From an uncultured Phycisphaerales bacterium (GTDB taxonomy: Bacteria > Planctomycetota > Phycisphaerae > Tepidisphaerales > Tepidisphaeraceae), in contig CAVWVQ010000001.1 in the NCBI GenBank assembly GCA_963758525.1, positions 32,001 to 96,000 on the forward strand: a stretch of DNA of 64,000 nt. Direction: 5' to 3'. Shown here piece by piece: positions 9,204-27,004 of the stretch. Under the pieces are notes generated by a model. It did not search any database. It worked only from the letters and a program-made list of their open reading frames with translations, and was not told the origin of the DNA. Both the position numbers and the translations under genes were made by a program. How positions within the stretch are numbered: the stretch's first letter is position 1; each line of letters begins with the position of its first letter.

Positions 9204-9253
9204 GCCCGCATGAATCGTACTTACGGTATCGCGCAATTGGAAAGGGCGCGTGG

Positions 9254-9413
9254 AAGGCACGAAGGCACGAAGGCACGAAGGCACGAAGGCACAAAGGCAC
9301 AAAGGCACAAAGGCACGAAGGGAAGGAAGGGGATTTTAGAAGAGGTTCAGGGGAACATCACAAAAATCCCCTTCCTTCCCTCCGTGCCTTCGTGCCTCCG
9401 TGCCTTCGTGCCT
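9254..9413. repeat. Tandem 8-mer (AAGGCACR) array in a large inverted repeat
   Basis: About 8 copies at 9254-9317 followed by gggaaggaaggggatttt; inverted aaaatccccttccttccc and about 4 copies at 9363-9413. Confidence 0.8.
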
Positions 9414-9479
9414 TTCTGTCCTCATTCTCTCGCCCCCTCAAGTTGCCCGGCATCGCGTCCTCGGGAATAATCAAACCAC

Positions 9480-10952
9480 ATGTTAGAGACTCTCAGCGAC
9501 AAGTTGGGCGGCGTATTTCGGAATCTCTCGGGGCGCGGGCGCATCAGCGAGGAGAACATTCGCGAGGCCATGCGCGACGTCCGCACGGCGCTGCTCGAAG
9601 CCGACGTGAATTTTGGGGTCGTCAAGACCTTCACCGAAACGGTGGTTCAGAAAGCACTGGGCCAGGAAGTCATCAAGAGCCTGCAGCCGGGCCAGTTGAT
9701 GGTGAAGCTGGTGTACGACGAACTGGTCGCCCTGATGGGGCCGGTCGACACGCGCATCTACCTGGTGCAGCCGCCGCCGACGATCATCATGATGTGCGGA
9801 CTGCAGGGGTCAGGCAAAACCACCACCTGCGGTAAACTTGCGAAATACCTGGTTTCCAAGGGACATCATCCGCTGCTGGCGGCGGCGGACCTGCAGCGCC
9901 CGGCGGCGGTCGAGCAGTTGCGCGTGCTGGGCGAGCAGGTGGGGGTGCCGGTCTATACCGATCCCACGAAAGTTGCGCCGCACGGCGAGGTTGCGAAAGG
10001 TTCTGCCGTCGCGGTCTGCCGGGCCGCTGTCAGTCAGGCAAAGAACAACGGGCAGGACATCGTCATTCTCGATACTGCCGGGCGGCTGCACATTGACGAC
10101 GAACTGATGGGCGAGCTCCGCGATGTGCGCACGCAAGTCCGGCCGCATCAGATCTATCTCGTGCTCGACGCCATGAGCGGCCAGGACGCGGTCAACAGCG
10201 CCAAAGCTTTCAACGAGCAGCTCGAAGTCGACGGGCTGATCCTCACCAAGTTTGATTCCGACACTCGCGGCGGCGCACTCCTGTCTGCCAAGATCGTCAC
10301 GGGCAAGCCCGTCAAATTTCTCGGCGTCGGCGAGAAGCTCGACCGTCTCGAAGAATTCCGCCCCGAAGGAATGGCCCAGCGCATTCTCGGCATGGGCGAC
10401 ATCGTCGGCCTCGTCAGCGAGGCGATGGAGAAATTCGACCAGGACGAGGCCGCGCGTTTGCAGGCCAACATGGAGAAGGGCCAGTTCACGCTGGACGACT
10501 TCATGGCGCAGATGACGCAGGTGAAGAAGCTTGGGCCGATGGGGAAGGTGATGGGAATGATTCCGGGCATGAGCGACATGACCCGGAAGATGAACATGAA
10601 CGAAGGGGACATTGAGAAGCAGATGGTGCACATGCGTGCCATTTACGACTCGATGAACAAGAAAGAGCGGGCCAACACCGACCTGCTCGACGGCGCCCGC
10701 CGCCGGCGCGTCGCGCGGGGGGCCGGGGTGGAGCTGAACGAGGTCGGGCAGTTCATGAAGCAGTTCGAACAGAGCCGCGACATGATGAAAGCGGTGGGGG
10801 GCATGGGAATGATGGGCCGGATGAAGCTCATGAAGAGTCTGATGAGCGGAGATCTGGCGAGCCTCGGCATGCCCGGCGGCCCGACGCTCCGCACGAAAAA
10901 GTCGGGCTTCATGGAGAAGAAGGACCGGAATAAGAAGAAGAAACGGCGGTAA
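9480..10952 (+). CDS. ffh: Signal recognition particle protein
   Basis: ALLEADV, GLQGSGKTTT, DLQRPAA, DTAGRLH, TKFDSDTRGG, RILGMGD, Met-rich M domain. Confidence 0.97.
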   Translation: MLETLSDKLGGVFRNLSGRGRISEENIREAMRDVRTALLEADVNFGVVKTFTETVVQKALGQEVIKSLQPGQLMVKLVYDELVALMGPVDTRIYLVQPPPTIIMMCGLQGSGKTTTCGKLAKYLVSKGHHPLLAAADLQRPAAVEQLRVLGEQVGVPVYTDPTKVAPHGEVAKGSAVAVCRAAVSQAKNNGQDIVILDTAGRLHIDDELMGELRDVRTQVRPHQIYLVLDAMSGQDAVNSAKAFNEQLEVDGLILTKFDSDTRGGALLSAKIVTGKPVKFLGVGEKLDRLEEFRPEGMAQRILGMGDIVGLVSEAMEKFDQDEAARLQANMEKGQFTLDDFMAQMTQVKKLGPMGKVMGMIPGMSDMTRKMNMNEGDIEKQMVHMRAIYDSMNKKERANTDLLDGARRRRVARGAGVELNEVGQFMKQFEQSRDMMKAVGGMGMMGRMKLMKSLMSGDLASLGMPGGPTLRTKKSGFMEKKDRNKKKKRR

Positions 10953-11018
10953 CGACGGTCGAGGCGAATATCGGAGGCGCGAACCTTTTCTAAGGTTGCA
11001 CAAACTAGAACGCGCCCG

Positions 11019-11094
11019 CCACGCTGAGTCTGAGGTGCTCCGAAGGCTCAGATTTACGGCGCTCGATTCAAGGCTTCGGAGGAGTTCAGACTCA
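11019..11094. repeat. Palindromic repeat family (copies at 44140-44222 and half copy at 50800-50845)
   Basis: ccacgc(t/c)gagtctgaggt(g/a)ctccgaaggctc ... gagccttcgg..tacctcagactcggcgtgg. Confidence 0.75.
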
Positions 11095-11119
11095 ATCAAT
11101 CGCGAAAGGTTTTTTCTCA

Positions 11120-12811
11120 ATGGCCGTCACTCATCGTCCCGTTCCCGCGCTTCCTTCCTGTCCTCGCGCACCATCCGTAGCCAAAGAAATTCATCGCTCC
11201 TATCCGACCGGCCGGCTGGAATTTGCCCGGGCTTTCGCTGGGAGCGTGCTGGAGCTTGCGATCTCCACTGCCGGGCAGTTTCCCGCGAAGATTCAGGCCG
11301 CGCTGGTCACCACACTCAACGCGAGCCGCGCGGGTGAATGGAAAGACATTTCGTTTGTACGGACCGATGAAAAGACATTTACCTGCCGAATCGTCCCGGA
11401 CCGGCCGGGCCTCTACTCCTTTTGGGCGCGCTTCTCAGTCGATGGCGGTTCCACCTGGATCGCTGATCCGGTTCCCGATGCCTGGGTCCTGGTTGATCCG
11501 CCACAGGTCGACCAGATGCGGCTCTACACGTTAATTCCCAGTGTCTCGGGAACGATCGCGGACTGGTCTGCCGAGTTGAAGAGAATCAAGGATCTCGGTT
11601 TTAACACGGTTCACCTGCTTCCCCTCACGACGCTCGACAGTTCGCAGAGTCCATACTCCGCCAAGGACTTGTTCAGCGTCGATCCCAGTTATCTTGCCAG
11701 TGGCACCAAGCGCGACGGCCTCGCTCAGCTCGAAGAATTCATCGAAAATGCCAAGGCGATGGGCATCCGGCTCTGTTTTGACCTCGTGCTGAATCACGTT
11801 GGCGTCAACAGCAATATCGCGCAACAGGCTCCCGAATGGATCGTGCCCGATCATGAGAGCCCCGACGGCCTGCGGCGCGCCCGCTACTTTTCCGACAAAG
11901 GCTGGCTCCCCTGGAACGATCTGGTGCTGATCGATTATGAGCATCCGTCACAGCGGATTCGCTCCGACATCTGGGCCTACATGACCGAATACGCGCTCTT
12001 CTCGGCGCACTATGCGAACGCGACAGACGGCTTCGTGCGCTTCGACAATCTGCACAGCAGTGACAAGGGCTTCGTGGATTCAGTGACCAAGTCATTGCGC
12101 ACTGAGTACCCGAACGTGGGGATTATCGCCGAGTATTTCACCGACGCCGGCACGCTGCTGAGCACCGTTCCGAAGTGGGACCTGAATCTGATTCTGGCCA
12201 CGCCTTGGGACAATCGGTTCGTGCCGCAGCTGCGTGATTATCTCAAATGGATTCACTCCGTCTCGGAGCACGTGCGGTTCTTCATGCCGATCACTTCGCA
12301 CGATTCGGGTTCGCCGGCCCAGGAGTTCGGCGCCGTCGAATCGACAGTTCCGCGCTACATCGCCGCGGCATTGCTCGGAACCGGCACCACCGGCATCACG
12401 CAGGGTGTCGAATGGGGGATGAAGGAAAGGATCAACTTCATCGGGAAGCAACCGCGGTTGACGCACTCCGGCGAGCCGATGTTCGGCGATTTCCTTCGCA
12501 AGGTGCATGAGATCATTGCCGCCGAGCCCACCTTCCGCCGCGGCAAAAACTGCCAGTTCGTCGACGGGAACCACGAGGCGGTGATCGCCGCCTTCCGCAG
12601 AGATGCCGGGCCCGCAAAGCCCCGTTTCCTGGTCGTCTGCAACTTCGACATCCTCCACGAGCATGCCTTTGAGGCCGATCTTTCGGTCTTGCTCGGGCAC
12701 GACGGCCCTGTTCACTGCGTGGATCTGCTGACCGGCAAGGAATTCAGTTTCTCAAGTGCGCGGGTGTGTCTTGTATTGGCGGTGTGCGCGGCGCATGTTT
12801 TGAAGTTTTAG
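11120..12811 (+). CDS. GH13 alpha-amylase family glycoside hydrolase
   Basis: LGFNTVHLLP, SPYS, DLVLNH, FVRFDNLH, IAEYF, TSHDS catalytic regions. Confidence 0.85.
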   Translation: MAVTHRPVPALPSCPRAPSVAKEIHRSYPTGRLEFARAFAGSVLELAISTAGQFPAKIQAALVTTLNASRAGEWKDISFVRTDEKTFTCRIVPDRPGLYSFWARFSVDGGSTWIADPVPDAWVLVDPPQVDQMRLYTLIPSVSGTIADWSAELKRIKDLGFNTVHLLPLTTLDSSQSPYSAKDLFSVDPSYLASGTKRDGLAQLEEFIENAKAMGIRLCFDLVLNHVGVNSNIAQQAPEWIVPDHESPDGLRRARYFSDKGWLPWNDLVLIDYEHPSQRIRSDIWAYMTEYALFSAHYANATDGFVRFDNLHSSDKGFVDSVTKSLRTEYPNVGIIAEYFTDAGTLLSTVPKWDLNLILATPWDNRFVPQLRDYLKWIHSVSEHVRFFMPITSHDSGSPAQEFGAVESTVPRYIAAALLGTGTTGITQGVEWGMKERINFIGKQPRLTHSGEPMFGDFLRKVHEIIAAEPTFRRGKNCQFVDGNHEAVIAAFRRDAGPAKPRFLVVCNFDILHEHAFEADLSVLLGHDGPVHCVDLLTGKEFSFSSARVCLVLAVCAAHVLKF

Positions 12812-13412
12812 AGCGATTGATGGGGGGAAGTTTCCAATCGGTGGAACCCGCATTTTGCAAGCAAGGAGATCGCTTGAGACGGGAGGAGAGACTGCCACGC
12901 CGTCAGCGTTGCTGTCCGATCTATATCCTCTGCTGTCACGATTCTTCGGCGAGCTTGCGCTGCCAATCCTGGGCGGTGTGAAAGACGTGAAGAATGTGGA
13001 CTTATGTATCGTTGAAATTGCAGACGGCCACGTGCCCGTGTCCGCCGGCTCTCTGCCGCATGATGACATATCGCAAGTCCGGGCGCGTGCCGACTGTCTT
13101 GCCCCTGGCATAACTGACGGCCAGATCCGCGATGCACTGTTTGAGGTAATGCAGATACACATCAGCGTGGGATACTCCGTAGCGTTCGGGCATTCCATCG
13201 CCAAACTCACGGCCTGCCGTAAAAAACGGGCAACAGTCGATTGCCGAGCAATTTTCCGGTGCAAGCCGACGGATTGCCTTCCGTTGATCCCCGCTGAGGC
13301 CGGGTGAGGCGTCAGACCGATTTCGCGGACAGCAGCAATTATTCCGGAAGGGGGACATGGATAACATTGCAACGACCGGAGCGAACCGTGCCGATCCGTT
13401 CGACCGTTCGAC

Positions 13413-13554
13413 CCCCTTGCCCGCAAACGCAACCCGCGTATGATGCGAGGCTTGGGAATGAGCGGAGTCACCGACGGGAAAAGCGACGGTATTTCAGGTG
13501 ATCACCGGATCGTTGACGACACATGCGGCCGAGTACCCAAGCGGACTAAGGGGA
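13413..13554 (+). repeat. attL: putative tRNA promoter region + first 28 nt of tRNA-Cys
   Basis: 13425-13554 is identical to 28219-28348 (130 bp), extending to 13413/28207 with one mismatch. Confidence 0.93.
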
Positions 13555-13594
13555 ATCATCAAAAACACGGGGAAATAAGCAGACTTTTGCCGCC

Positions 13595-13614
13595 GGTGGA
13601 CCAAATGTGGACCA
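13595..13614 (+). promoter_or_regulatory. Putative integrase arm-type site
   Basis: ggtggaccaaatgtggacca; near-identical to 28125-28144. Confidence 0.6.
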
Positions 13615-13798
13615 CGGCTTACGGAAAGTCATCGCGGCATGGCCGACACTGCCGGCGAACGTCCGCGCGCAGATCCTTCGACTCGCGGAGCGGCAAGGGT
13701 AGAATCGAAACGAACATCGGGACGGCCGACTAATTACCGGCCAAGCGAATCGACGGCGGAGCCGTGTCCACCAGCACGACCCGCCGAAGATTCGGCCC

Positions 13799-14569
13799 GT
13801 GAAAGACTGGTGGAAAATGGAAGAATCGCAGGCACTTCGTTTTATCCGTGGACAAGGCAGTCAACCGGCACGATTTGAACGGCCCGACCGGAAGCCATCA
13901 CCGGAGGTTGAAGAATGCCGGAAGCTGCTCAGGGGCCCGGACATTCCCGTAATTCCTGCGGAGCTTCGTCGCATCGCCGACGTGCTCGACCGCGTTCCCG
14001 GGATGAACGAATTTGATGCGATGCGTACGACCGCGTCTGGCTGCCTGCATGACGCGATTAGAGCGGGCGCGTTCTCTGGAAGCCGCTGGCTCGATTTCCG
14101 TATCAAGCTCGCTGTCGGGCCCGGCATCACCACCGCGTACTTTCTGATCCTTGACAACTCGGAAGCGTGGGGCGTCACGATCGACAAAACGAAGCGATCA
14201 CCCCGTGCCGAAATTGAACTGGGTTGCCCGCTGATTGCCGCTCTGCTGAGGGAGCAAGCTCCTCAAAATTCCCTCCCGGCGCCAGCCCCAAAGGCGACTA
14301 CAGACGACGCCGCCGAGGCGGTGCGAATCATCGCCGATCGTGCAGCCACCAAGCCCAGGCTGCTCTGGCTTAAGTTCTATCTCGACCAAAATCCGAATGC
14401 GACGCTGCGCGACATTGAAACCGCCGCGAAGCTCTTACATCACTCCCTTCCAAGGGCGAGCACCAACGGCATTCTCGCGAGGGAAACATGGATAGGTCAT
14501 CAACCGCGCAGGCGATCGCACCGAGACACGTCAATTGAGCCAATCCTGCACCGTATCCCGTCCCGATAG
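13799..14569 (+). CDS. Hypothetical protein, possible C-terminal HTH regulator
   Basis: 256-aa ORF at the element's left end upstream of alpA; NPNATLRDIETAAK helix. Confidence 0.5.
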   Translation: MKDWWKMEESQALRFIRGQGSQPARFERPDRKPSPEVEECRKLLRGPDIPVIPAELRRIADVLDRVPGMNEFDAMRTTASGCLHDAIRAGAFSGSRWLDFRIKLAVGPGITTAYFLILDNSEAWGVTIDKTKRSPRAEIELGCPLIAALLREQAPQNSLPAPAPKATTDDAAEAVRIIADRAATKPRLLWLKFYLDQNPNATLRDIETAAKLLHHSLPRASTNGILARETWIGHQPRRRSHRDTSIEPILHRIPSR

Positions 14570-14753
14570 CTGTCCGAACTGTCCGGCCGCTGCATTTCTT
14601 CGGACAGCGCATTTTTCTTGCCACTAACTGACATCGCTTGAAAACAGGGTGATTCCGCGCGCCCGCTTGCACGCCGCTGTCCAGAAATCCGGACAACCCC
14701 TAGGAATGAAACGGTGCACCCACGGGGACAGGGTGCGCCATTCAGGAGGCAAT

Positions 14754-14975
14754 ATGACACACGAAAACGACACGCCGTCTCTGCTGCTGCGAGCTTCGAC
14801 CGTCGCCCGCATGTTGGAAATCGGGGAACGCACGCTCTGGCGTTGGGTCAGCGAGGGCGATTTCCCTTCACCGGACTACCGGAAAAACGAGCGGATTGTC
14901 CGCTGGAAGCGGGACACCGTAATGAACTGGGTGCACACCAACACCACCACGACGGCTGCTGCCATCACCGCTTAA
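14754..14975 (+). CDS. AlpA-family HTH regulator / excisionase
   Basis: LLRASTVARMLEIGERTLWRWVSEGDFPSP...IVRWKRDTVMNW; AGGAGG RBS. Confidence 0.85.
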   Translation: MTHENDTPSLLLRASTVARMLEIGERTLWRWVSEGDFPSPDYRKNERIVRWKRDTVMNWVHTNTTTTAAAITA

Positions 14976-15057
14976 ACCCACTTACCGCTGCGGTTGCCCG
15001 GCGCATAAAAACGCCGCGGCAGGGCTCGCAACCCGTACCGCGGCAGAAACTCGACTG

Positions 15058-16581
15058 ATGACCATCGTAGCAGAAGAAATCGAAGCCCCCAACGAAATCG
15101 AAGATTCGACGAGAATCGTCGAACAAGTTGATGTTGAGGCCATCCGCGAGACGCATGAGAACTGGCGGATCTACTGCCGGCCATCAGCGACAGACGCAGC
15201 GTTCATCGAATTGGTTACGAGCGTGATGGAAAGCGGCATCAACACGCCGCTGGAGCTGTCAGCCGATCGGTACATCATCAGCGGCCACCGGCGCATTTTT
15301 GCCGCCCGTGCTGCCAAACTCGCGACCGTTCCATGCCTCATCGACCACGACATCTACATCGGACCGATGGACGCCGCGGAGCGTATCGCGCTGCTGACGG
15401 AACGCAATCGCGGCGTCAGGGTCAAGTCAGACGCGGAGCAATACCTTGAAGCCGCTGCGAAGATCGATCCCGAGGCTGCGATCCGGGACGCACAGCAGCG
15501 CAAGGCACAACATTTCAACAAGGCAAAAGGTTCTGTCGAACTGGTGGAGACCCAGGGCAAGAGTCGTCGCACGGATCCATCAAAGGCGCGTAGCGAGCTA
15601 TTGAATGCGGTTCTGGAAGTTCTGGAGGAACTGCGCTGCAATGGTCATCTGCCGATCGGCTCCAGGCATATTCACTACAGATTGCTCCACAAGAAAGTGA
15701 GGACAAGCAGCTACGCCAACGGATTTATATACGGCACGCGCAAGGGTTCCGATGGGTTACTCAGCAAACTTCTGACCGACGCGCGCAGCAAAGGCATTGT
15801 CGATCCAGACGACATCGGCGACGACTCCCGCCCTACGCAGAAGATGGAACATGATGGCAATATTGCTCGATACGTCGGCAGGGAACTGGACGCGCTCTTC
15901 GGCAATTTTTTCTCCGACATCCATGCAGATCAACCGCATCACGTTGAACTGCTGATCGAGAAAAACACGGTCTACCCGCTGATCGCAAAGCACGTCGGAA
16001 ATAAATTCCGCGTGCCGCTCACGTCAATGCACGGCTACGGCAGCTTCCCCTCATCCCGCGACATTGCCGCCAGGTTCAAGGCGAGCGGCAAGGAAAAGTG
16101 CGTCGTGATTTATGTCTCCGACCTCGACCCTGAAGGCGTGAACATGCCAGCGGCGGTCAAGAAATACCTCCTCGAAGACTTCGGAGTGACCACCACCATT
16201 GTGCGGGCCGGCGTGACGATGGAACAGGTCAAGAGGTTCAAACTGCCGCCGGATGCCGACGTGAAGTTGTCGAGTACCCGCGCAAAAGGCTTTATTGCGA
16301 AGTACGGGCACCAATGCTGGGAACTCGACTCGATGCCCGCCGACATCCTCATCAGCGAAACCGCCGGCGCTGTGTCGAAGTTCTTAGACATCGACGCGTT
16401 CAACAGGGCATTCGATCGCGAACGAGAAGCTGATATCGAGCTGGCTAGGATGAAGGCAGCCGCGTCCGCGTTCGTTCGTGACCAGTTTCAGGAACAACTC
16501 GGCCAGGGGCGCAATGAACAAGCACCTCCAATATGCCGGCGGGTTCTTTGTAACACCGCTGAGCGGCGGCTTGCCATTTGA
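15058..16581 (+). CDS. ParB/Srx N-terminal domain fused to Topo VI-A/Spo11-like winged-helix + TOPRIM domain
   Basis: SVMESGINTPL...IISGHRR (ParB); SRHIHYRL, ELLIEK, YVSDLDPEG, WELDSM (Top6A-like). Confidence 0.75.
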   Translation: MTIVAEEIEAPNEIEDSTRIVEQVDVEAIRETHENWRIYCRPSATDAAFIELVTSVMESGINTPLELSADRYIISGHRRIFAARAAKLATVPCLIDHDIYIGPMDAAERIALLTERNRGVRVKSDAEQYLEAAAKIDPEAAIRDAQQRKAQHFNKAKGSVELVETQGKSRRTDPSKARSELLNAVLEVLEELRCNGHLPIGSRHIHYRLLHKKVRTSSYANGFIYGTRKGSDGLLSKLLTDARSKGIVDPDDIGDDSRPTQKMEHDGNIARYVGRELDALFGNFFSDIHADQPHHVELLIEKNTVYPLIAKHVGNKFRVPLTSMHGYGSFPSSRDIAARFKASGKEKCVVIYVSDLDPEGVNMPAAVKKYLLEDFGVTTTIVRAGVTMEQVKRFKLPPDADVKLSSTRAKGFIAKYGHQCWELDSMPADILISETAGAVSKFLDIDAFNRAFDREREADIELARMKAAASAFVRDQFQEQLGQGRNEQAPPICRRVLCNTAERRLAI

Positions 16582-17089
16582 TGAGGGGTTGCACTTCGCC
16601 CGCATCGAACTGCAGCGCGTTTCGGCATCGCTGGAACTGATCGGGAGTTGCTGGCAGGAACCGGTTGAAGCCGTGCGGATCTGCGCCGAAGAGGGCATCA
16701 ATTCATCTGCCTTTGACGACGACAGCCGGATTCTGTTTTTGGTTCTGGAGCTTGCCGCCAAATATCCAGACGCAGACCGACGCAGACTTGCGCGGCGGTG
16801 TCTCAGAGCAAATCACCATTGGGACGATGCGGCGCCGCCGATTGAATTCGGCCGGCTCGGCTGGTCTGACAAAACGCTCGCGGTCCTGGCCGAGAGCTGG
16901 TTTCACTCGCCGCTGTTGATCCGTCTCAACGCTCGAAACTTACTCCGGATTCTCGTTTCACGGCGCGATGCGGCTCACCACCTCCGTGAGGCCCGCCGCC
17001 TTCTCGCGGATCCCGCACATTCTGAAACCCACAAACGCCCCGTGCACGTCATCAACCGCCCGGCACAGAATCGGAGGCGATCCGCATGA
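16514..17089 (+). CDS. Hypothetical protein, weak DnaB N-terminal-like pattern
   Basis: Stop overlaps the next start (ATGA); ELIGSCWQEP...GINSSAFDDDSRILF. Confidence 0.45.
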   Translation: MNKHLQYAGGFFVTPLSGGLPFDEGLHFARIELQRVSASLELIGSCWQEPVEAVRICAEEGINSSAFDDDSRILFLVLELAAKYPDADRRRLARRCLRANHHWDDAAPPIEFGRLGWSDKTLAVLAESWFHSPLLIRLNARNLLRILVSRRDAAHHLREARRLLADPAHSETHKRPVHVINRPAQNRRRSA

Positions 17090-18876
17090 TTGCACTCGAA
17101 TACGACAACGAGATTCTCAACGGCGATTACCTCGCGACCGTGCGAGCTGTAGACACCGAGCGGGAGACAACCATCCACGAGCGGCGGATAAGCCTTCTGG
17201 ACGTGACACAGCGCCAGAACTTCGCGGACGCCGTGGCGAAAAGCATCGGCGATCGCGGCGCGGCGGAAGCAATCCAATTCAAGCTCCAGGAAAAAGCCAA
17301 CGAATGGAAGCCGGAAGGACACGGCACGCTGAAACTCACGACCCACGAGGAAGAGCCGGAAGCGCAGACAACCAGTGAGGGTTACAACCTCGTGCCCGGC
17401 GACTACACCGACGACGCCGGCAACAGCATCGAACGCGGCACCGACGACTTCACAGACGAAGTAATCGGCAATCTGCCCACCGGCACGATTTACTCGCGCG
17501 GCGGTGTTGCTGGTCAAGTTGAGGGCGAGCCAGGGGCGCGGTTCTTCTCTGATCTCGCACCGGACGGCATGCGCATCATCGTCGACTCCTGCATGAAGCT
17601 CGGGAAGTGGCGCACCCGTGGAGCCGGGAAGAACACCTATCAAGAAATCGGCTATGTGTCCTGCACGCGCGACCATGCCGGGCTCGTGTTATCTCGGGCA
17701 CCCGCCGATCGGCGCGTTCCGGTTCTCAAGTTCCTCACGTCGTACCCAATCTTTCTTCCCGGCTTTCGACTCTCAGAGCCGGGTTTTCACGATGGCGTTT
17801 TCTATGATGAGCCAGAAGCAATCCGGCAGATTAAAAGCGAGACCGATGCGGAAATTATCCGCGACACACTCTATGACCTCGTCATCGATTTCCCGTTCAA
17901 GGATGAAGCCAGCCGGCACAACTATTTCGGGCTGCTGATCACGCCGCTGATCCGTCCGGCGATCGCCGGCAACGTCCCCGGGCATCTCATCGGCGCGCCG
18001 CTGGAACGAACCGGCAAGACACTTCTCGCGGAGATTGTCGGCGCCATCGTTAACGGGATGCGGACGCCCGCCATGCAAATCTGTGAATCGAATGAGGAAA
18101 TGGACAAACGGCTCCTCGCGATTTTGCTTCGCGGGGAAACCCTGCTCCACCTGGATAATATCCGCGACACAATCGACCTCCCGTGTCTCGCCTCACTCTT
18201 GACCGCTAGCGTTTACAAAAGCCGTTTGCTCGGCGCGTCCAAGATGCTGGCGATTGAGAACAACGTGACGCTGATCGCCACGGGCAACAACCCCCGGGCA
18301 ACTGGTGAACTGGCAAAGCGGTTTGTTCCCATCACGCTCCAACCCACTACCGACGCGCCAGAACTGCGGAAGGATTTTCGACACCCCGATCTATGGGGTT
18401 ACGTCACGGAGCATCGCCGTCAAATCCTCGGCTGCCTGTTGGGCGCGGTGCGGATCTGGACCGACGCCGGCTCACCCCGCGGCGAACAACCGATGGGCGG
18501 GTTCGATGAGTGGGCAGCCGTCATCGGCGGCATCATGAAGGTGCTGGGTTTCGATGACTGGATGGGGAATGCCGGCGAATGGCGCGACTCGGCAGACTGG
18601 CGCCGATCCGACCTGCGGGCACTGGTGAAGTGCTGGCACGAACGGCACGGCAGCGGGCCCGTCACGGTTCGAGAAGCCCTGGCGATCGCGGAGGAGTTGG
18701 AACTATTCGGCGACGTGCTCATCGGCAAGGAAGGCAAGGCGCTGCTCACCAGCTTCGGAATGAAGGTGCTGGGGCGCAACACCGACACGCCGGTCGAAGG
18801 CTTCATCATCCGCAAGAACAGCCTCAGCCGTCCGGCAATCTACTCACTTCAGCCGCTGGAAGGGGTGACAGCGTGA
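17086..18876 (+). CDS. Replicative P-loop NTPase/helicase of phage primase-helicase type
   Basis: Walker A APLERTGKT, Walker B LLHLDNI, IATGNN, ELAKRF; iterons directly downstream. Confidence 0.75.
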   Translation: MIALEYDNEILNGDYLATVRAVDTERETTIHERRISLLDVTQRQNFADAVAKSIGDRGAAEAIQFKLQEKANEWKPEGHGTLKLTTHEEEPEAQTTSEGYNLVPGDYTDDAGNSIERGTDDFTDEVIGNLPTGTIYSRGGVAGQVEGEPGARFFSDLAPDGMRIIVDSCMKLGKWRTRGAGKNTYQEIGYVSCTRDHAGLVLSRAPADRRVPVLKFLTSYPIFLPGFRLSEPGFHDGVFYDEPEAIRQIKSETDAEIIRDTLYDLVIDFPFKDEASRHNYFGLLITPLIRPAIAGNVPGHLIGAPLERTGKTLLAEIVGAIVNGMRTPAMQICESNEEMDKRLLAILLRGETLLHLDNIRDTIDLPCLASLLTASVYKSRLLGASKMLAIENNVTLIATGNNPRATGELAKRFVPITLQPTTDAPELRKDFRHPDLWGYVTEHRRQILGCLLGAVRIWTDAGSPRGEQPMGGFDEWAAVIGGIMKVLGFDDWMGNAGEWRDSADWRRSDLRALVKCWHERHGSGPVTVREALAIAEELELFGDVLIGKEGKALLTSFGMKVLGRNTDTPVEGFIIRKNSLSRPAIYSLQPLEGVTA

Positions 18877-18880
18877 GAAA

Positions 18881-19070
18881 TTCAACACCTTTCAACACCT
18901 TTCAACACCTTTTCAAAAAAGGTGTTGAGCGCAACCAACGCGGTGATAAGAGTATACGCAACAACCAACACCTTCAACACCTTTCCAGTACCCCCCCACA
19001 TGCGCAGGCGCGCGCCTGAACCACGAACGGGTGGGCTGGAAAAGGTGTTAAAGGTGTCTGAAGGTGTTGA
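18881..19070. repeat. Iteron cluster, putative replication origin
   Basis: (ttcaacacct)x3 at 18881-18910, inverted aggtgttga at 18920, two more direct copies at 18966-18982, three inverted copies at 19043-19070. Confidence 0.8.
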
Positions 19071-19287
19071 TTTGGTCCTGCACATCACCATTCGGCCGCA
19101 CGAAATCCCGTGGGACGTTCGGCTTGCCGGCGAGATCAAGCGGATGGGGCGTCATCCGCTTATCCAGTTCGACGTGACGCATTACGCGATGGCTGGCACC
19201 GCCAACGCGTCCGCGAGCACCGCGCCCACGTCCGCATCGCACGAACCAGCAACGCGGGAAACAGGCTGCAAACGCAAAGGGAACCAA

Positions 19288-19517
19288 TGAGCGACGAACT
19301 GGCAACCATCACCATCTTTGAACCGCGCCCGGCGCTCCCGGACCTGCTGGCGGCACTGCGCAGCCGCGGATTGAAACTCAGAGCCGGCAGAGACATCGAC
19401 CAGCCGCACTACCGATGGCTGGACGTGATGCCAGCCGAGCGAGTCGGGAACTTGTGGCCGGCGATCGAAGCGAACTTCAGCGCGTTGCACACACTGGCAG
19501 AGCAGGTGGCACCATGA
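19288..19517 (+). CDS. Small hypothetical protein
   Basis: MSDELATITIFEPRP...; coupled to neighbouring ORFs. Confidence 0.4.
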
Positions 19518-19765
19518 GCACGGATGAACAGCAGACAGACAGCAGCAGTGCCGACGCCACGATTACGCGTTCGATGGGCGACTATGAGGTCGAAACTGCC
19601 AAGGTGGCACCCCCCCATGAGGTTCTTTTTTGGGGCCGGTGGCATCTCACGGGTTCGCCGCAGAGCCAGCGAATGACCACCTACGCCGCACTGTAGCAGG
19701 AATGAAAACACGACTTGACGGTACGACACAATGCCGAATGTTAAGATAGTTAAGGTGGGTATACT

Positions 19766-19805
19766 GGGTCCTCTCCGGGCCGCACGCCCTTTACGCGGGT
19801 TTGCG
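19766..19805 (+). other. Lambda-cos-like packaging site candidate
   Basis: GGGTCCTCTCCGG...CGCGGGTTT resembles lambda cosQ GGGTCCTTTCCGG and the CGCGGGTTT following cosN; lies just upstream of terS. Confidence 0.55.
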
Positions 19806-19863
19806 ACTGCCTTATTCCCAGAGATTGTTGCCTTGAACGTGATGAGTTAACGCTTTCCACGCA

Positions 19864-20391
19864 ATGAAAAAGCACCGCAAACAACCTCTGCCGCCGATCA
19901 CCAGCGCCCGGAAACTTGCCACGCTGATGCAGCGGAGTCACGTCGCCGTCAGCAAATGGCTGAAGCGTGCCGACTGGCCGTTCGGTACGCCGCCGTGGCT
20001 CGCGTCACAGCTTCCATCGATCGCAAAATGGTCTGATGAAACGCTGCGCCCATCAGTCGACGCCGGCAACGAAGACGCTGCCGCGGTTGATCTGCGCCGT
20101 CAGAAGCTACGGCAGGAAATCCGCCGTCTGAACGCCCAGGCTGACGCTTCTGAGTGCGCCCTTGCCAAAGAGCGTGGCTCCCTGATGGACGCGGGGGAAG
20201 TTGTCCGGGAGTGGCAGTCAATCACAGCGGCGCTGACGGCTGGCGTGGGCTCGCTGCCAGAGTCGGCTGCAATGCTGGCGCTGTCGCATGGGATGCCGCA
20301 CGAAGCGCGGGGAACGTTCAAGCAACAGGTACGGGAAGCGATCGACGCCATTCTGCAGCGGATGAACGCGCGGAGCGTGGTGGAACAATGA
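19864..20391 (+). CDS. Terminase small subunit (Nu1-like)
   Basis: N-terminal HTH (SARKLATLMQRSHVAVSKW), coiled coil RLNAQADASECALAKERGSLMDAGEVVREW...SLP. Confidence 0.72.
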   Translation: MKKHRKQPLPPITSARKLATLMQRSHVAVSKWLKRADWPFGTPPWLASQLPSIAKWSDETLRPSVDAGNEDAAAVDLRRQKLRQEIRRLNAQADASECALAKERGSLMDAGEVVREWQSITAALTAGVGSLPESAAMLALSHGMPHEARGTFKQQVREAIDAILQRMNARSVVEQ

Positions 20392-20477
20392 GGCTGTCTT
20401 AGGGCTGCCGGGTGTTCCGGCCGCCCCAGAGTTTTTGAAAACAAACAGCCGGCGAACTGTCGGCGGAAAGATGAGCG

Positions 20478-21014
20478 ATGAACGCATCAGAAACATGGCA
20501 GGATCACACGGAGGCGATCGCCGCCAATCGGTGCGCCGAAGCAGGTGCCAGATACCAAGGGTATCGCCAGCTCCTGCGCGAGATTGCATCCGATGGCAAC
20601 CTGTCCGACGGTCGCAAGGATCAGCTTGAAACCCTCGGTCAATCGCTCGCGATACCCGCCGATGAGATTCGCCGGGATCTGGCGACGATGACGGCCGCGG
20701 TGGCGCGGGAGAAACTCGCTGGCGGTTCCGACGCCGCAAGGGTCGCGGCGCAGGCGGCGCGTGAGGCGGTTGACGCTCACGTTACCGAAACCGATCGGCT
20801 GGTGTCCGCGCGGGAAGAGGAAACTTGGCATCTTCGGCATGATCGCAAGGTGACTGAGAACGAGCTTCGCGCCGCGCACGAGACGGCAGAGCGAGGCGTA
20901 TCGACGACAGCCGAAGCGCAGGCGGAGCTTGACCAACTCCGAATCGACCACGCGCAACTTTTGAATCATCCCACGACGGCCCCGGTGTCCCCGGCGGCTC
21001 ATATCGTGGCGTGA
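20478..21014 (+). CDS. Coiled-coil hypothetical protein (paralog A)
   Basis: 178-aa ORF; N-terminal half resembles the next ORF. Confidence 0.6.
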   Translation: MNASETWQDHTEAIAANRCAEAGARYQGYRQLLREIASDGNLSDGRKDQLETLGQSLAIPADEIRRDLATMTAAVAREKLAGGSDAARVAAQAAREAVDAHVTETDRLVSAREEETWHLRHDRKVTENELRAAHETAERGVSTTAEAQAELDQLRIDHAQLLNHPTTAPVSPAAHIVA

Positions 21015-21050
21015 CTATTAGCCGGCAAGTTCCGGCGGAAAGAAGAAGCA

Positions 21051-21728
21051 ATGGATTTTCTGAAACGACTGAAGGCGCGGCGAGCCGAAAAGCACGCCAC
21101 CGTGATTGAGAAATATGCGGCACTGATCCGACGAGCAGCGAATGGAGGCGAGCTCTCTGAAGCGGATACGGCGCGGCTTGATGCTCTTGCTGCGGAACTG
21201 AAGTTCGAACCGGAGCGCATTGAAGCGGACGTTGAGACGATCAAGCGCGTTGTAGCGCTCGAGGAAATCGCCCCGACGCTGGACGCAAAGAAGGTGGAAC
21301 ACAAGGCGTTGACCGTCGAACTTGGCGCGGCTCACGATGAACTGAAGACGATTCTCGCGAGGTTCAATGAGCGCATCACGTCGATCGAAGGACGCAAGGG
21401 ACAGGCGGGCGTTGCAATGACGGAGGCGAGCCAGGCGGTCGATGAACTTGCCGATCTGCGTTCCCGTCACTGGCGTTTGCTCGGCTTCCCCGAACCACCC
21501 AAACGCGAAGTGCCGGAAACGATCATCGATCCGATCAGCGATGGGCATCGGATCTACCAGGATTCCTACGCGGAGGTCTACGGCGGCGAGAGTAAGACGC
21601 CGAAGCCGCTCCCTGAAGTGATGGCGCCGTTGCCGGGTCCGCCAGCACGGGTTCACGTCACAGCATCGGCGGAAGAGACGGGCGTTAAAGGACGGATCCG
21701 CGGGACGATCAGTGTGCAGCCAGCTTAA
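21051..21728 (+). CDS. Coiled-coil hypothetical protein (paralog B)
   Basis: 225-aa ORF, heptad-rich. Confidence 0.65.
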   Translation: MDFLKRLKARRAEKHATVIEKYAALIRRAANGGELSEADTARLDALAAELKFEPERIEADVETIKRVVALEEIAPTLDAKKVEHKALTVELGAAHDELKTILARFNERITSIEGRKGQAGVAMTEASQAVDELADLRSRHWRLLGFPEPPKREVPETIIDPISDGHRIYQDSYAEVYGGESKTPKPLPEVMAPLPGPPARVHVTASAEETGVKGRIRGTISVQPA

Positions 21729-21740
21729 ACCCGCCGGCCA

Positions 21741-21960
21741 GGGTGTGCGGGGCCGCTCACGGCACCCCGCGTTACGAAGACCGTGAGCGGGTGAATCGTT
21801 TCGAGCCCGGCCAGCGGTGGATTTTCGTTCGTTTGTCCACCGCGAGAGACTTAACCCCGAAGGTCCGGCGGGATGCGAAAATCGACGACGGACCAACCCC
21901 GGCAGCGGTGAAAGCTGATGTCGGGATTTGAAAGAACAACTTAACCGCGGCGAATGCCGC
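21741..21960 (+). ncRNA. Candidate structured RNA / leader
   Basis: Five hairpins plus a 10-bp loop-to-downstream complementarity. Confidence 0.4.
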
Positions 21961-23072
21961 AAGGAATTTCAAATGACCAAGTCTTCAACACTTCAGCGGC
22001 GGCGCAGCATCCGGGTCGTCATCTCGGGCGACCTTGGGCAATTGCACCGCGCGACTTCGAGCCAATCCTTCAGAGTGTCTCAACCCTGAATTTCAACAAT
22101 GTGCCGGCACCGTCGGATGATGACGCCGCGCCTTATCGAGTGGTCAACGGACTGGCGATTGTCAGCGTCGGCGGCCCGTTGGTTTCGAGCGCCGATTGGA
22201 TCGATGAATACCTCGGCTTTGTGGGGCTCGACGACATTGAAAACGCCGTGAATCAGGCAGCAGGCGATCCGCGGATCAATGGCATCATGCTCGCGGTTGA
22301 CAGCCCGGGCGGCACGGTTGCAGGAACAAGCTCCGCTGCGGCCGCCATTGCCAGAGCAGCAAGGATCAAGCCTGTACACGGTTACTCGGCAAACTGCGCG
22401 TGCTCGGGCGCTTACTGGCTCGTCTCGCAATGCAACCGCTTCACTTCCGGCGATACTGCCGCCGTCGGCAACGTCGGAGTGTACGCGGTTCTCTGCGACA
22501 GCACCGGCATGCAGCAACAGCTTGGATTGCGGCTTAGTCTCGTCTCGACTGCGCCGTACAAAGGATTGGGCGCTGACGGCGCGGTGAGTGATGCGTTGAT
22601 CGCGGACGTGCAGCGCGAGATCGCCGATATCAATCAAGTCTTTCTTGCGGCGGTTTCCCGCGGGCGGTCGCTCGATTCTACGAAGGTTCTGTCGGTCGCC
22701 GACGGACGCGCCCATATCGGGCAGGCTGCGGTTTCGCTCGGACTGTCCGATGGCATCTGCAGCTTTGAGGACGCGTGCCTCGCGCTGCTGAAGGAAACAG
22801 GCGATGCCGGTTCACCGCTAGGGCCCGCGTCGGCGGCGCCGGTGAAGTTCGCTCCCGACGATGACGCCAGCGAACCCATGCCCGATATCGATCCGCTGTC
22901 TCGTCGATCGACACAATCACCCGAGGCTGCCGCGCTCGCGGAATGGCAGAGCGATCCGAGTCTCCGTGAGACGTGGAAGACGCAAGAGCGGTTCACGAAA
23001 TGGCGCACCAGCACTGCCGGGATTGCGCATGCCCAACGATCGCAGAGCCGCATCGCGGGGACGTTCCGATGA
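21954..23072 (+). CDS. S49 (SppA/lambda gpC-like) serine peptidase, putative prohead protease; start uncertain
   Basis: PWAI, VDSPGG, KPV, ACSGAYWL, VGNVGV, ADGRAHIG. Confidence 0.85.
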   Translation: MPQGISNDQVFNTSAAAQHPGRHLGRPWAIAPRDFEPILQSVSTLNFNNVPAPSDDDAAPYRVVNGLAIVSVGGPLVSSADWIDEYLGFVGLDDIENAVNQAAGDPRINGIMLAVDSPGGTVAGTSSAAAAIARAARIKPVHGYSANCACSGAYWLVSQCNRFTSGDTAAVGNVGVYAVLCDSTGMQQQLGLRLSLVSTAPYKGLGADGAVSDALIADVQREIADINQVFLAAVSRGRSLDSTKVLSVADGRAHIGQAAVSLGLSDGICSFEDACLALLKETGDAGSPLGPASAAPVKFAPDDDASEPMPDIDPLSRRSTQSPEAAALAEWQSDPSLRETWKTQERFTKWRTSTAGIAHAQRSQSRIAGTFR

Positions 23073-23407
23073 ACGCCACCTATCAAACGATGATCGACCT
23101 TGTTCTCTGCTATCGCAGCTCCGCGCAGATTGGCGCGATGGCACGGCTGAACTGCGGACAGATCTGCGCGATGTTCCGGCGCTCGCTGGCGGCTGGCGTC
23201 GGCGATGCACTCTCAGGACGTTTCTACCGCAAACACGCGGCGCTCGGACGGAGCTGCCGTGCCGACATCGCCGATCTGTTCAAGCGTGAAGCTGATCGGT
23301 GGGCGCTTGCGCTGAGTGGATATGCGAAGCGCCGCAACTTGTTCGGCGCGGTCGAAGATGACCTCCGCGTTGAATCTGAACGTCTAGGCGGAACCACCCG
23401 CATTTAA
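23069..23407 (+). CDS. Hypothetical protein
   Basis: ATGA coupling with the S49 stop; MNATYQTMIDLV... Confidence 0.45.
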   Translation: MNATYQTMIDLVLCYRSSAQIGAMARLNCGQICAMFRRSLAAGVGDALSGRFYRKHAALGRSCRADIADLFKREADRWALALSGYAKRRNLFGAVEDDLRVESERLGGTTRI

Positions 23408-23422
23408 TCGAGGTAACCAGCA

Positions 23423-24916
23423 ATGGCCAAAAGTGAACGACAAGTCGATATTGCAATCACGGCCCGCGACGAAGCGTCAAGCGTTTTCAAGAGCGTTGCG
23501 GCGCAGGCGCGTGAGTTCAATATGGAGGCGAAGCGCAGTGGCGAGGGCGCAGTCGAGCGGCTGCTAAAAGGCGGCGGTGCCCTTGGTCTCGCGACATTCG
23601 CGCTTGAGGGCGCGGGACATGCTGCCAAGGCGTTCAGCGAATCGCTTGCGGAAGTTGCCAACGGTGAGCGGTCTGTCCAGGAAGGCTTCGGACACATGCT
23701 GGAGGGGGTCTCCGGCGCGGTGCCCGTGCTGGGGACGTGGGTCACGGCGTTCCGTGAAATCGAAAATGCAGGATTCGACGCCGCAGCTTCCATCGCCGCC
23801 GCCTTCGGCGCAGACAAGGCAACGCAAGAGGCCATTGAAAGTTCCGACACCCTCAAGGCGCATTATGAGGCGCTCTCCAAGGCGATCTACGAAGGCGAAA
23901 AGCTGGCGATGGCGGGCAAGGCAAAAGCCACGATCGCCGGATTGACGGGCATAGAGAGAGAGCGGGCCGAGGCCAACAAGGCATACCAAGAGGAGCTCGA
24001 CCATATCGAGCAGCTGCGCAAAGAAAAAGAGAAGGGGTTGGACGCCGACGGGAAACGCGCCGCCGACAAAGGATTCAATCAGGCGCGTATCGAAGCTGAG
24101 AACGCGCTCAATCAGAAGCTCGCCGAACTATCCCGCGAGGCGGCAGACCAAAAGGAAGAAAACCAACTCAAGCACCTCGAGCGCGTCAAGTCCCAAGAAG
24201 ACTTGGCCGACGAAGTTCGGCTTCGTGAACGCGGCCGCGATCTTGAGGCTGATCTGGTCGCATTGACGGCGGCGCATGAAAAGGAGCTCGCGGAAATTGA
24301 CCGGCTGCATCAGAAACAAAAACTCAGTGACCAACAGGCAAAAGAGGAGCGTGCCGCTGCTGATGAAGCGTTCGAGGCGCGATCCGGCGAGGCACGGGAG
24401 AAGGATGCCGCGGCCAAGCTCGAACGGAACGATTCGATCAATCAGACGCTCAACGCCGCCAAGCTCGCTGCGCTGAAGGAACAGGCCGCGATGGGCGATC
24501 AGGGGGCAGCCGCGGAGGCCAGGAAGTGGGAAATCTCCCTGAAGTACACCGCCGAAAAAGAGAAGCTCATCCGACTCCTGCGCGATGAGAAGGGGTTGAC
24601 TGATGCCCAGCACGCGGCGGCAATTCAGGCGCTGGGGGATCTTGAGAAAGCCAGAAACAAGGAACTGGAAAGCAGCAAAGTTGAACCGCAGGAGAACCGC
24701 AAGGCGGCCCTCGAGGAATCATCACAACTGGCTGGCGTGTCGGCATCACAGGACATCGCAAAAGAACATCTTCAAACCGCGAAGGATTTACTTGACGAGG
24801 CCAAGAAGAATAACGACACGCTGACCCAGGCGGCCGCCGACATCGCAACGATGGTGGGATATCTGGACCCGAGCAACGCCACGTCGGCGAACAGCGTTTT
24901 TGGAGACAGCCAATGA
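23423..24916 (+). CDS. Tape-measure-like helical protein (497 aa)
   Basis: VDIAITARDEASSVFKSV N-terminus typical of tape measures; Ala/Gly-rich hydrophobic segment followed by a long coiled coil; GAGG RBS. Confidence 0.55.
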   Translation: MAKSERQVDIAITARDEASSVFKSVAAQAREFNMEAKRSGEGAVERLLKGGGALGLATFALEGAGHAAKAFSESLAEVANGERSVQEGFGHMLEGVSGAVPVLGTWVTAFREIENAGFDAAASIAAAFGADKATQEAIESSDTLKAHYEALSKAIYEGEKLAMAGKAKATIAGLTGIERERAEANKAYQEELDHIEQLRKEKEKGLDADGKRAADKGFNQARIEAENALNQKLAELSREAADQKEENQLKHLERVKSQEDLADEVRLRERGRDLEADLVALTAAHEKELAEIDRLHQKQKLSDQQAKEERAAADEAFEARSGEAREKDAAAKLERNDSINQTLNAAKLAALKEQAAMGDQGAAAEARKWEISLKYTAEKEKLIRLLRDEKGLTDAQHAAAIQALGDLEKARNKELESSKVEPQENRKAALEESSQLAGVSASQDIAKEHLQTAKDLLDEAKKNNDTLTQAAADIATMVGYLDPSNATSANSVFGDSQ

Positions 24917-25155
24917 CCGATCCACGCGTTATCGACATGATCGAGGCGACCCGGCGGAGCTTCATCGGGCTTGAGGAAAGCTACGCCAAGCACTCTGAAG
25001 TCATGGACCGGCATGTCGAGTACATCGGCGATCCGGATGTTTCGACGCGCGAGGACTGGAAAGCGCTCCTGCCAGAACTAGCGAATCTGCGTCGCCGGTT
25101 GGCGGTGTTTCACTCGGCGCTGGGACGGCTGGAAAAGCATATCAAGAGGGAGTGA
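24913..25155 (+). CDS. Hypothetical protein
   Basis: ATGA-coupled 80-aa ORF. Confidence 0.5.
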   Translation: MTDPRVIDMIEATRRSFIGLEESYAKHSEVMDRHVEYIGDPDVSTREDWKALLPELANLRRRLAVFHSALGRLEKHIKRE

Positions 25156-25189
25156 GGCGCGCCGGTGCGGAACTATAGGAATTTAGTTC

Positions 25190-25231
25190 TTGACTATGAT
25201 TCGGTACGCCTCTATATTTATTCCATAGTCA
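25190..25231 (+). promoter_or_regulatory. Sigma70-like promoter with overlapping inverted operator
   Basis: TTGACT-17-TATATT (25190-25218); tgactatg (25191) and catagtca (25224) inverted repeat. Confidence 0.6.
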
Positions 25232-25248
25232 TCAACCAAGGAGCAGCC

Positions 25249-25440
25249 ATGACAACCGGGACGCGCCCGACCGCAACCCTGAAGAGAATGATTACCGCGG
25301 CAGCCGCCGATCGCGATGCCATGCTCCGCGAGGCCGGCGACTATGCCGGAAAGCAACGCTCGGATCGGTATTGTGAAGCTGATCGGCTCGACGGTGTTCT
25401 CAACGCACTGAAGGCGGAGCTGATCGAAGCGGAGGGGTGA
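25249..25440 (+). CDS. Small hypothetical protein
   Basis: AAGGAG RBS, promoter upstream. Confidence 0.55.
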   Translation: MTTGTRPTATLKRMITAAAADRDAMLREAGDYAGKQRSDRYCEADRLDGVLNALKAELIEAEG

Positions 25441-25527
25441 ATCGGGGGCGCCCGTGTCACAATTGACGAACCTCTGCGAAAAGTGGGCTCTCAGACTCCG
25501 CCTGCATAAACGCCACGGTAAACCTTT

Positions 25528-25719
25528 TCACAGCTTCCCCTTCGCCAGCTTTCCCTTCGGGCGCCCAGGCTTGCGGACACGCACGTCGGCAAGGCTTTTC
25601 TCTTCGATCATATAGACATTGCCGAACTTGGAGGCGCGAAGCCGGCCGGCGGTGATAAGGGCAATCACGCGGCGGCGGGTGACTTTGAGCTTCGCGGCGG
25701 CGGCGGTCGTGGTCAACAT
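25528..25719 (-). CDS. Excisionase-like HTH protein
   Basis: MLTTTAAAAKLKVTRRRVIALITAGRLRASKFGNVYMI...KPGRP. Confidence 0.8.
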   Translation of the reverse strand: MLTTTAAAAKLKVTRRRVIALITAGRLRASKFGNVYMIEEKSLADVRVRKPGRPKGKLAKGKL

Positions 25720-25877
25720 TGCCGCCAGAGTCTACAGACTGACAAGAAAATATCTATGCACCCTTGCGAACAGTTCCCCGCGTTGTATAGTTTCTCGTAG
25801 CTTGCCGAGTGGCGAGCATTCAAAGTGCCCCCGCGACGTGTCACCGTCCGGGGGCCGGTCAAAGCTTTTAAGGAGCA

Positions 25878-26339
25878 ATGACGATGGAAAATGTACTGCA
25901 TACCGCGCCGCGTTTGAATCTTGCGGGTGTTCCCAAACATGCCCGCACGATCATCCGCAAGGCACCGGCGACCTGGCACCGCTGGCTCGCGTTCCTGAAT
26001 GCCGCCGACGATCCCGACTTCGAGCTGGTAGCCGAAGAAGCGGCGCCCATGTTTGAACTGGTGGCAAAGCTGACACGGCTGGGCGTCCCGTTCGATGAAA
26101 GCTTCCTGCAGCGCGTCGCGGAACTGCGGGAGGAAATGAAGTGGACGGATGCCGACAGTGACGGCGATGTGAGTGTGGACGATGGGAAGGAAGAACCACC
26201 CGATGAGCGGTTCGGACCCTGCGACAACGACGATCCGGCTTGCCGGGAGGACCTGCAACCAACTATCCGCCGGGACTTTGACGGCACCACAAGCCAGCAC
26301 AAGCCTTTGCTCAGCGAATGGGCGGGGGTGCCGCGATGA
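25878..26339 (+). CDS. Hypothetical protein
   Basis: AAGGAG RBS; TTGCGA-16-TATAGT upstream (25764-25791). Confidence 0.55.
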   Translation: MTMENVLHTAPRLNLAGVPKHARTIIRKAPATWHRWLAFLNAADDPDFELVAEEAAPMFELVAKLTRLGVPFDESFLQRVAELREEMKWTDADSDGDVSVDDGKEEPPDERFGPCDNDDPACREDLQPTIRRDFDGTTSQHKPLLSEWAGVPR

Positions 26340-26896: not shown

Positions 26897-27004
26897 CTTC
26901 TGATCGGTTGTGGCAAGATTTCCACAACCGATTCTTTGATCGAAAACTGACACGGGCCGTCCGCTGGCTAACGCTGGCGGAGGCGATTGAAAGGAACGTG
27001 AACC

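Follow-up and report, generated by a model that had tools for sequence, protein, structure and literature searches.

Myxococcus phage Mx8 uses a tRNA-Asp gene as its site and enters it from the 3′ side. Both Mx8 and Mx9 carry attP inside the integrase gene, int (PMC6070905, PMC4701971), and in Mx8 integration swaps 112 C-terminal integrase residues for 13, with lower activity (PMC4701971). The att site is also translated within the integrase in the archaeal split ("suicidal") integrases of SSV1, pTN3, and pT26-2; there, a tRNA promoter could drive the displaced part of the gene, and D-loop cleavage is extrapolated for one enzyme (PMC8371274). The SNJ2 site lies at the 3′ region of a tRNA (PMC5861418).

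Integration at the other end of tRNA genes is on record as well. Islander holds 159 islands with a 5′ tRNA fragment among 3,919 tDNA islands, and the crossover subsites given in the consulted sections are the anticodon loop, the T loop, and the T/acceptor junction only (PMC4383910). The Klebsiella arg2 islands of clade I.d, assigned a "D-loop" sublocation, integrate upstream of the tRNA (10.1101/2020.11.02.365908). Integration leaves a bacterial tRNA under its own promoter "with very few exceptions" (PMC8371274, citing Williams 2002).

Here, we analyze a window of 64,000 nucleotides from an uncultured Phycisphaerales bacterium (contig CAVWVQ010000001.1, positions 32,001 to 96,000), in which two copies of a direct repeat enclose 14.8 kb. 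On balance, we favor the view that this is an integrative element whose integrase likely recombines within the D arm of a tRNA-Cys gene (nucleotides [nt] 12 to 18), so landing upstream of it; that the tRNA 5′ end and its predicted promoter are rebuilt from the last ~190 bases of int; and that a further 114 bp of identity were probably left by a related element that came before, as a secondary scar.

Structure of the locus

The 142-bp direct repeat lies at 13413 to 13554 and 28207 to 28348, both copies on the + strand, and is 99% identical, the single mismatch at repeat position 12 (13424 versus 28218) leaving 130 bp perfect. A whole-genome search found it in these two places only in the 6.47-Mb genome, which is assembled into 6 contigs, the longest of 5.0 Mb. 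ARAGORN and Rfam both place an intact tRNA-Cys(GCA) gene at 28321 to 28394 (+), and the repeat therefore consists of 114 nt of upstream DNA followed by nt 1 to 28 of the tRNA. The left copy, attL, thus carries promoter-arm-type DNA and a tRNA fragment (13527 to 13554), and the right copy is attR. A sequence-only reading of the window had described a repeat of this extent, including the motif TTGCCC-16-TATGAT, together with an intact tRNA at its right end and an integrase open reading frame (ORF) ending inside it; all of these features were re-found, and the C-terminal integrase ORF (27576 to 28295) stops within the right copy.

The tRNA fragment and the intact gene are 14,794 bp apart and share an orientation, with the 5′ fragment upstream, a spacing inside the 2- to 200-kb range of Islander. 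An Rfam scan of 12800 to 28700 matched the tRNA alone, so the 114-nt tract is not a known RNA family. We found no empty-site relative with the same flanks, the genes from ffh to tRNA-Cys being different in genomes G001 and G002.

The genome has two further tRNA-Cys genes. One of these (G000:C3:890237-890307) shares its first 15 nt with that of the window and differs in its body, making it a possible secondary integration site. Nine other tRNA genes have a 3′ fragment 1 to 54 kb downstream and are candidates for classical islands; among plausible tRNA genes, an upstream 5′ fragment occurs only at the tRNA-Cys of the window. At G000:C3:4444800-4445900, ARAGORN calls five overlapping tRNA-Ser genes in a tandem array of ~38-nt units, and these are probably not real tRNAs. 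Other repeats in the window include an array of 8-nt units at 9245 to 9439, forming a 77-nt inverted repeat directly upstream of ffh (SRP54), and dispersed intergenic palindromes of ~35 to 65 nt that are REP-like (10994 to 11059, 44115 to 44246, and 50799 to 50863).

Gene content of the element

Phage satellites of the PICI type are ~15 kb long and carry integrase, AlpA/excisionase, primase-like, and small terminase-like genes. The window element is similar in size and in this gene set. Besides a tyrosine integrase (PF00589 above cutoff), it has profile matches to an AlpA/excisionase-like helix-turn-helix (HTH) gene (14649 to 14975, +), a primase/polymerase-associated domain protein (17086 to 18876, +; phrog_19930 and phrog 10537), a terminase small subunit-like gene (19864 to 20391, +; phrog_57), and a second excisionase-like HTH gene on the − strand (25528 to 25719). 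No capsid, portal, or large terminase match was found among the 20 element ORFs scanned (17 in one of the scans), so that int, xis/alpA, primase-like, and terS genes are present and a full morphogenesis set is absent; several of the 20 ORFs had no match at all. The element departs from the PICI type in also carrying an S49 peptidase/head maturation protease-like gene (21954 to 23072, +), a gene for a RecT/Bet-like single-strand annealing protein (26318 to 26896, +), and a ParB-N domain fused to one matching PHROG 6247 ("DNA topoisomerase"; 15058 to 16581, +; E value of 1.9e-35). Contigs of sequencing run X1 are ~90% identical to the window at 18822 to 19234 and 98 to 100% identical at most of the other places compared, which suggests that a variant of the element may be present in that run.

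A group of integrases inserting from the 5′ side

Loci were collected from genomes, metagenomes, and viral contigs with an alignment of 49 integrase homologues, two of which carry the source name Tepidisphaeraceae. After removal of 4 duplicates, 212 loci had a usable integrase ORF: 95 with a tRNA or tmRNA on the opposite strand (the classical arrangement), 36 with a downstream tRNA on the same strand, and 81 with no tRNA in reach. The last class was excluded from the phylogeny, which comprises 131 labeled rows (FastTree and a quick IQ-TREE run). Viral contigs yielded no relative when searched with the integrase of the window alone and only distant relatives (23 to 43% identity) when searched with the alignment.

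In this tree, the window falls within a 19-row group in which every row has a same-strand tRNA-Cys or tRNA-Arg (support of 99 to 100). The enclosing group has 26 rows, the additions being three further same-strand Cys/Arg rows and, facing an opposite-strand tRNA-Gly or tRNA-Glu, four others; support for one shared origin of the 22 D-arm rows is 28. By its sequence, the window element is a member of a planctomycete group of tyrosine integrases (22 loci, at tRNA-Cys or tRNA-Arg) that insert from the 5′ side of the tRNA, and the 5′-side integration first proposed for this one locus holds for all 22 of them. A DNA search of 41 related genomes likewise placed 5′ fragments of tRNA-Cys on the upstream side of the gene (G014, G032, and G013). 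Over the whole tree there are 10 orientation changes, at least 8 of which are forced by well-supported branches; with that many flips, the wider family offers a clean test of how an integrase changes the orientation of its target.

Several loci add variations. L023 (G032:C44:5683-10355) and L172 show 5′-side integration with the tRNA in common up to the anticodon arm (to nt 44 of tRNA-Cys and to about nt 39 of tRNA-Leu, respectively), have promoter-like sites and the same integrase tail as the group, and look like independent orientation flips. The tRNA-Cys gene at L027-L028 (G024:C26:346055-372310) also has, at a distance of 26 kb on its downstream side, a 3′ fragment of the classical kind (51 bp), and both ends of that tRNA therefore serve as sites. 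At L024 (G013:C2:33157-33493), a scaffold gap lies between a 5′ fragment of tRNA-Cys and a right end of the arm type, and the locus is probably a collapsed element of the window's family.

Crossover and arm-type sites

Nine other elements, of 2.4 to 22.8 kb, could be delimited on the left and on the right; they are located at tRNA-Cys (G002, G014, G462, G442a, and L170, a remnant outside the tree) or at tRNA-Arg (G019, G363, L038, and G460). Identity between left and right ends stops at tRNA nt 18 in five of the nine, at nt 20 in three, and at nt 22 in one; it never ends sooner, although G442a and L038 each have one internal mismatch (nt 7 and nt 11, respectively). The left ends of G002 and G462 have a perfect 5-bp inverted repeat around nt 12 to 18, and the inverted-repeat score, calculated for the window and eight others (G442a not included), is best for an overlap at those same positions (29 of 54, with a runner-up of 21). 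Overlaps of 7 bp are typical of tyrosine recombinases (PMC8371274). We infer that the crossover occupies nt 12 to 18, in the D arm, corresponding to 13538 to 13544 in attL (+) and 28332 to 28338 in the intact tRNA. Given an exchange there, the window's longer match, to nt 28, would be core-site resemblance. Because identity stops at nt 18 in five relatives, we reject an exchange at nt 28 as well as one in the anticodon loop.

Two pairs of GGACCA direct repeats, both on the + strand, are predicted to be arm-type integrase sites. The inner left pair (13598 to 13614) lies 71 to 72 nt from tRNA nt 1 in all seven pattern-matched elements among nine scanned. The inner right pair (28128 to 28144) starts 193 nt upstream of the tRNA, an offset that is 191 to 194 in seven Cys-type relatives and 173 in G002, the pair being unmatched in two. 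This prediction draws on the structural model of a relative's integrase, which has a small N-terminal domain of three strands plus a helix and counts lambda integrase and other tyrosine recombinases among its top structural matches.

attP within the integrase gene

The sequence-only reading had not mentioned that the integrase gene of the window (27005 to 28295, +) is frameshifted twice, near 27430 and 27512, and so occupies three frames in the assembly; it ends early, at a TGA at 28293 to 28295. As a background rate for the assembly, frameshifts were seen in 2 of 34 conserved genes. Run X1 has a contig (151 nt, depth 2) that lacks the second frame break and is otherwise identical, but it is not independent support because X1 may be the source sample.

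Also missing from that reading was the position of attP. Except in the window and G466, the int frame runs through the arm to a TAA or TAG at tRNA nt 21 to 23, in the D-loop (20 of 22 loci); in the window, the equivalent TAA, which is the family's integrase stop in the integrated state, is at 28341 to 28343. Among the 49 homologous proteins, 28 terminate in the hexapeptide that the tRNA encodes, 4 extend into non-tRNA sequence, as is expected of the excised form, and 1 reads on across the tRNA. At the attL of relatives, the frame resumes and leads into a W-x-x-L-P motif. The 33-residue tail with this motif is predicted to form two helices (pLDDT of 92) and has no sequence match in Pfam or PDB. 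In the window, the stranded tail frame spans 13550 to 13702 (+), with the motif at 13601 to 13699, and is preceded by an in-frame TAA (13547 to 13549) where G002, G014, and G462 have TAC, such that the int frame of this copy is stopped on both sides of the att site.

From the reading frames, then, attP lies inside int, the D-loop of the tRNA provides the stop codon, and the tail is stranded at attL; upon excision, the tail would be rejoined to the integrase, and joined forms do exist among database proteins (L114, L127, L082, and P0003). In the opposite-strand loci of the wider family, 90 of 95 integrase frames also read into the tRNA, and it is on account of these and the joined forms that we regard an att site inside int as ancestral to the wider family. 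The predicted model of a relative's integrase places all folded domains before residue ~350 and the att site at ~445 to 450, and pLDDT is under 50 over most of the intervening linker (residues 369 to 450).

A predicted replacement promoter

TTGCCC-16-TATGAT occurs in both repeat copies, at 13417 to 13444 and 28211 to 28238 (+). The left copy is a predicted sigma-70-type promoter (−35 box at 13417 to 13422, −10 box at 13439 to 13444) that points into the element, and the right copy is a predicted promoter for the tRNA, placed 110 nt ahead of tRNA nt 1 and within the int reading frame. A simple promoter scan, which gave 5 sites where shuffled sequence gave 3.5 ± 2.3, was no better than chance. 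A matrix seeded with the sigma-70 consensus and trained on the upstream regions of 54 other tRNAs in the window's genome assigns the site 14.2 bits, compared with a median of 12.7 in the training set.

Applying a threshold of 8 bits, a promoter is predicted in all 22 element-side regions of the Cys/Arg group, compared with 22 of 93 equivalent regions of opposite-strand elements, where no promoter is needed, and 84 of 1,000 random windows, although these locus counts overstate independence because the loci are related. Thirteen of 14 unrelated same-strand elements also reach this score. Offsets within the group fall near −40 in 14 loci, at −107 to −110 in 6 (including the window), and at −89/−90 in 2. 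These data support the idea that the element provides a replacement promoter for the tRNA. The promoter-like site sits in the part of int predicted to be disordered and could therefore evolve under both constraints.

No terminator-like site was found on the + strand at 13555 to 14000, and a truncated tRNA transcript with read-through from the left copy into the first genes is possible. First genes that read in the direction of this promoter are not a conserved trait: among the eight other elements checked, the first long ORF is antisense in five.

Origin of the 114-bp duplication

The earlier proposal tied the replacement promoter to the duplication. An element-supplied, promoter-like site is general in the group; duplication as the family mechanism is not, as eight of the nine other complete elements have only 0 to 6 nt in common upstream of the tRNA. 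The exception is the tRNA-Arg element of G019, which has a 137-nt upstream pair that is about 79% identical. We therefore view the 114-bp duplication as a local by-product and not as part of the family's design. The 130-bp perfect repeat could permit loss of the element by homologous recombination, independently of the integrase.

In length, and in the offset of its promoter, the 114-nt tract matches the arms of Cys-type elements. It is collinear with the promoter arm of locus L035 (z = 5.2; equal length, with four compensating single-base indels), the 74 nt below the −10 box giving a z of 4.9; the other 24 pairwise arm comparisons have z values of 2.2 or less, the signal coming from L035 alone. 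A profile of seven arms gave the tract −0.8 bits, recovered the right arm of the window at 27.0 bits, and found no match in the left 230 nt, at the left end of the element (G004 enters these comparisons and the profile scan as a negative row only). The four indels fall within about 65 nt and put two stops into the int frame of the tract; ahead of it, int is open over 630 nt, and its arm sites are spaced as in relatives. On the host side, the flank at 13253 to 13412 (+) is weakly similar to the element's right arm and is a candidate for an older relic, with a z of 3.95 over 160 nt and 1.1 to 2.0 over 60 to 130 nt, significant only at 160 to 200 nt. A profile search of 10900 to 13600 found no integrase relic.

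Arm relics do occur elsewhere. On the host side of other elements, the profile scores 34.5 bits at G442a, which sits downstream of another family member's arm, and 10.8 bits at G002; upstream of tRNA-Cys genes, it scores 28.8 in G019, 16.3 in G012, and 16.0 in G021, and these three have no upstream integrase match within 1.5 kb. The best of 81 control upstream regions reached 2.5 bits. Relics are absent from 10 of 13 other tRNA-Cys upstream regions and from 4 of 6 Cys-type attL host sides, including that of the window. This distribution points to element promoters that may outlive their elements and become promoters of host tRNA genes.

The history that we favor would begin with a tRNA-Cys gene already standing on the promoter arm of an older family member, into which the current element then integrated. 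Exchange within the D arm (nt 12 to 18) would place the element upstream of the tRNA, whose 5′ end and predicted promoter would be rebuilt by int's own last ~190 bases. The identity of the two copies over 114 nt, from the −35 box onward, could then have arisen when these similar promoters recombined from the conserved −35 block, with the element's RecT as a possible agent. Of the two copies, the older one, with its decayed frame, would be the likelier donor of the 114 nt.

The same mechanism may have run with the opposite history, in which a copy of this element was deleted between the host and element −35 boxes, leaving the 114-nt arm, and re-integration followed (or the right copy overwrote the left). 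The repeat begins 4 nt upstream of the −35 box, a boundary to be expected if selection maintained expression of the tRNA; the tRNA-Cys relic of G019 likewise starts just upstream of its −35 box; and 99% identity implies a recent common source. Even so, we consider this course of events, the main rival to the favored one, unlikely, in that the damage is confined mostly to the duplicated tract while the int sequence above it is open, which an old, noncoding donor fits better, and weak homology extends into the left flank.

There is very little probability that the ends of the element are real and the 114-nt near-identity is an assembly or polishing artifact that merged two similar promoter arms. 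The frameshifts of the assembly and the X1 short-read contig lacking one integrase break would suit an artifact, and the contigs of runs X1 to X3, which cover neither repeat copy nor an excision joint, speak neither way, but in an assembly this contiguous a 142-bp repeat should be spanned, one mismatch survives between the copies, and the two ends of relatives are too dissimilar for polishing to merge. A strict version of the earlier proposal, in which attP is designed to hold a duplicate of the tRNA promoter native to the host, is largely refuted by the relatives and, to us, highly improbable: the block is long, is near-perfect, and covers the promoter exactly, with G019 as a partial parallel, but the other eight complete elements lack such a block, all have a promoter-like site of their own, and the tract resembles an element arm (L035), unlike the host upstream regions tested.

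Returning to the favored history of an older arm and a secondary scar, one could extend it to a single ~190-nt stretch that serves as integrase linker, arm-binding DNA, and tRNA promoter at once, with integration swapping promoters and the D-loop cutting off the enzyme's tail. The host promoter at attL would then express the two-helix tail as a separate small protein, from a GTG or TTG within the arm site, to tune excision in trans, and repeated visits would leave tRNA genes on int-derived promoters for good. We regard this extension as speculative and improbable as a whole.

Comparison with known systems

The Cys/Arg group forms a mapped exception to the rule that a bacterial tRNA keeps its own promoter, and it yields both a putative D-arm crossover at base resolution and the location of the predicted replacement promoter, inside the integrase gene. 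Each ingredient is published (5′-fragment islands, D-loop sites, and attP inside int); in a limited full-text literature search, we found neither their combination nor a paper that deals with these planctomycete integrases or with an integrase gene that contains a tRNA promoter.

As in the 5′-fragment islands of Islander, the tRNA and its displaced fragment are co-oriented, the fragment is upstream, and a tyrosine integrase is aboard; the inferred D-arm site sets the present group apart, and the sections of the Islander paper available to us do not discuss promoters inside int (PMC4383910). The Klebsiella arg2 islands share the upstream position and a repeat that spans the acceptor 5′ half, D-stem, and D-loop. 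Their clade I.d integrases are described as P4-like and enterobacterial, and attP inside int, a replacement promoter, and a tRNA-supplied stop go unmentioned in the available portions of that report (10.1101/2020.11.02.365908).

The likeness to Mx8 is at the level of the family: the int frame crosses the att site and the C terminus differs between states, the integrated form stopping in the D-loop in 20 of 22 loci. What is displaced differs, being here a 33-residue, two-helix motif without a Pfam or PDB sequence match rather than the swapped C terminus of Mx8. A tblastn search with P0024 against 50,697 phage records gave no match at an E value of 1e-5, in a collection from which Mx8 may be absent. 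With SSV-type elements, the contrast lies in where the gene is cut: there, it is split into int(N) and int(C) and the catalytic part is separated (PMC8371274), whereas in the window's family the catalytic domain stays whole, uncut from the N-terminal part, and only the distal tail is lost.
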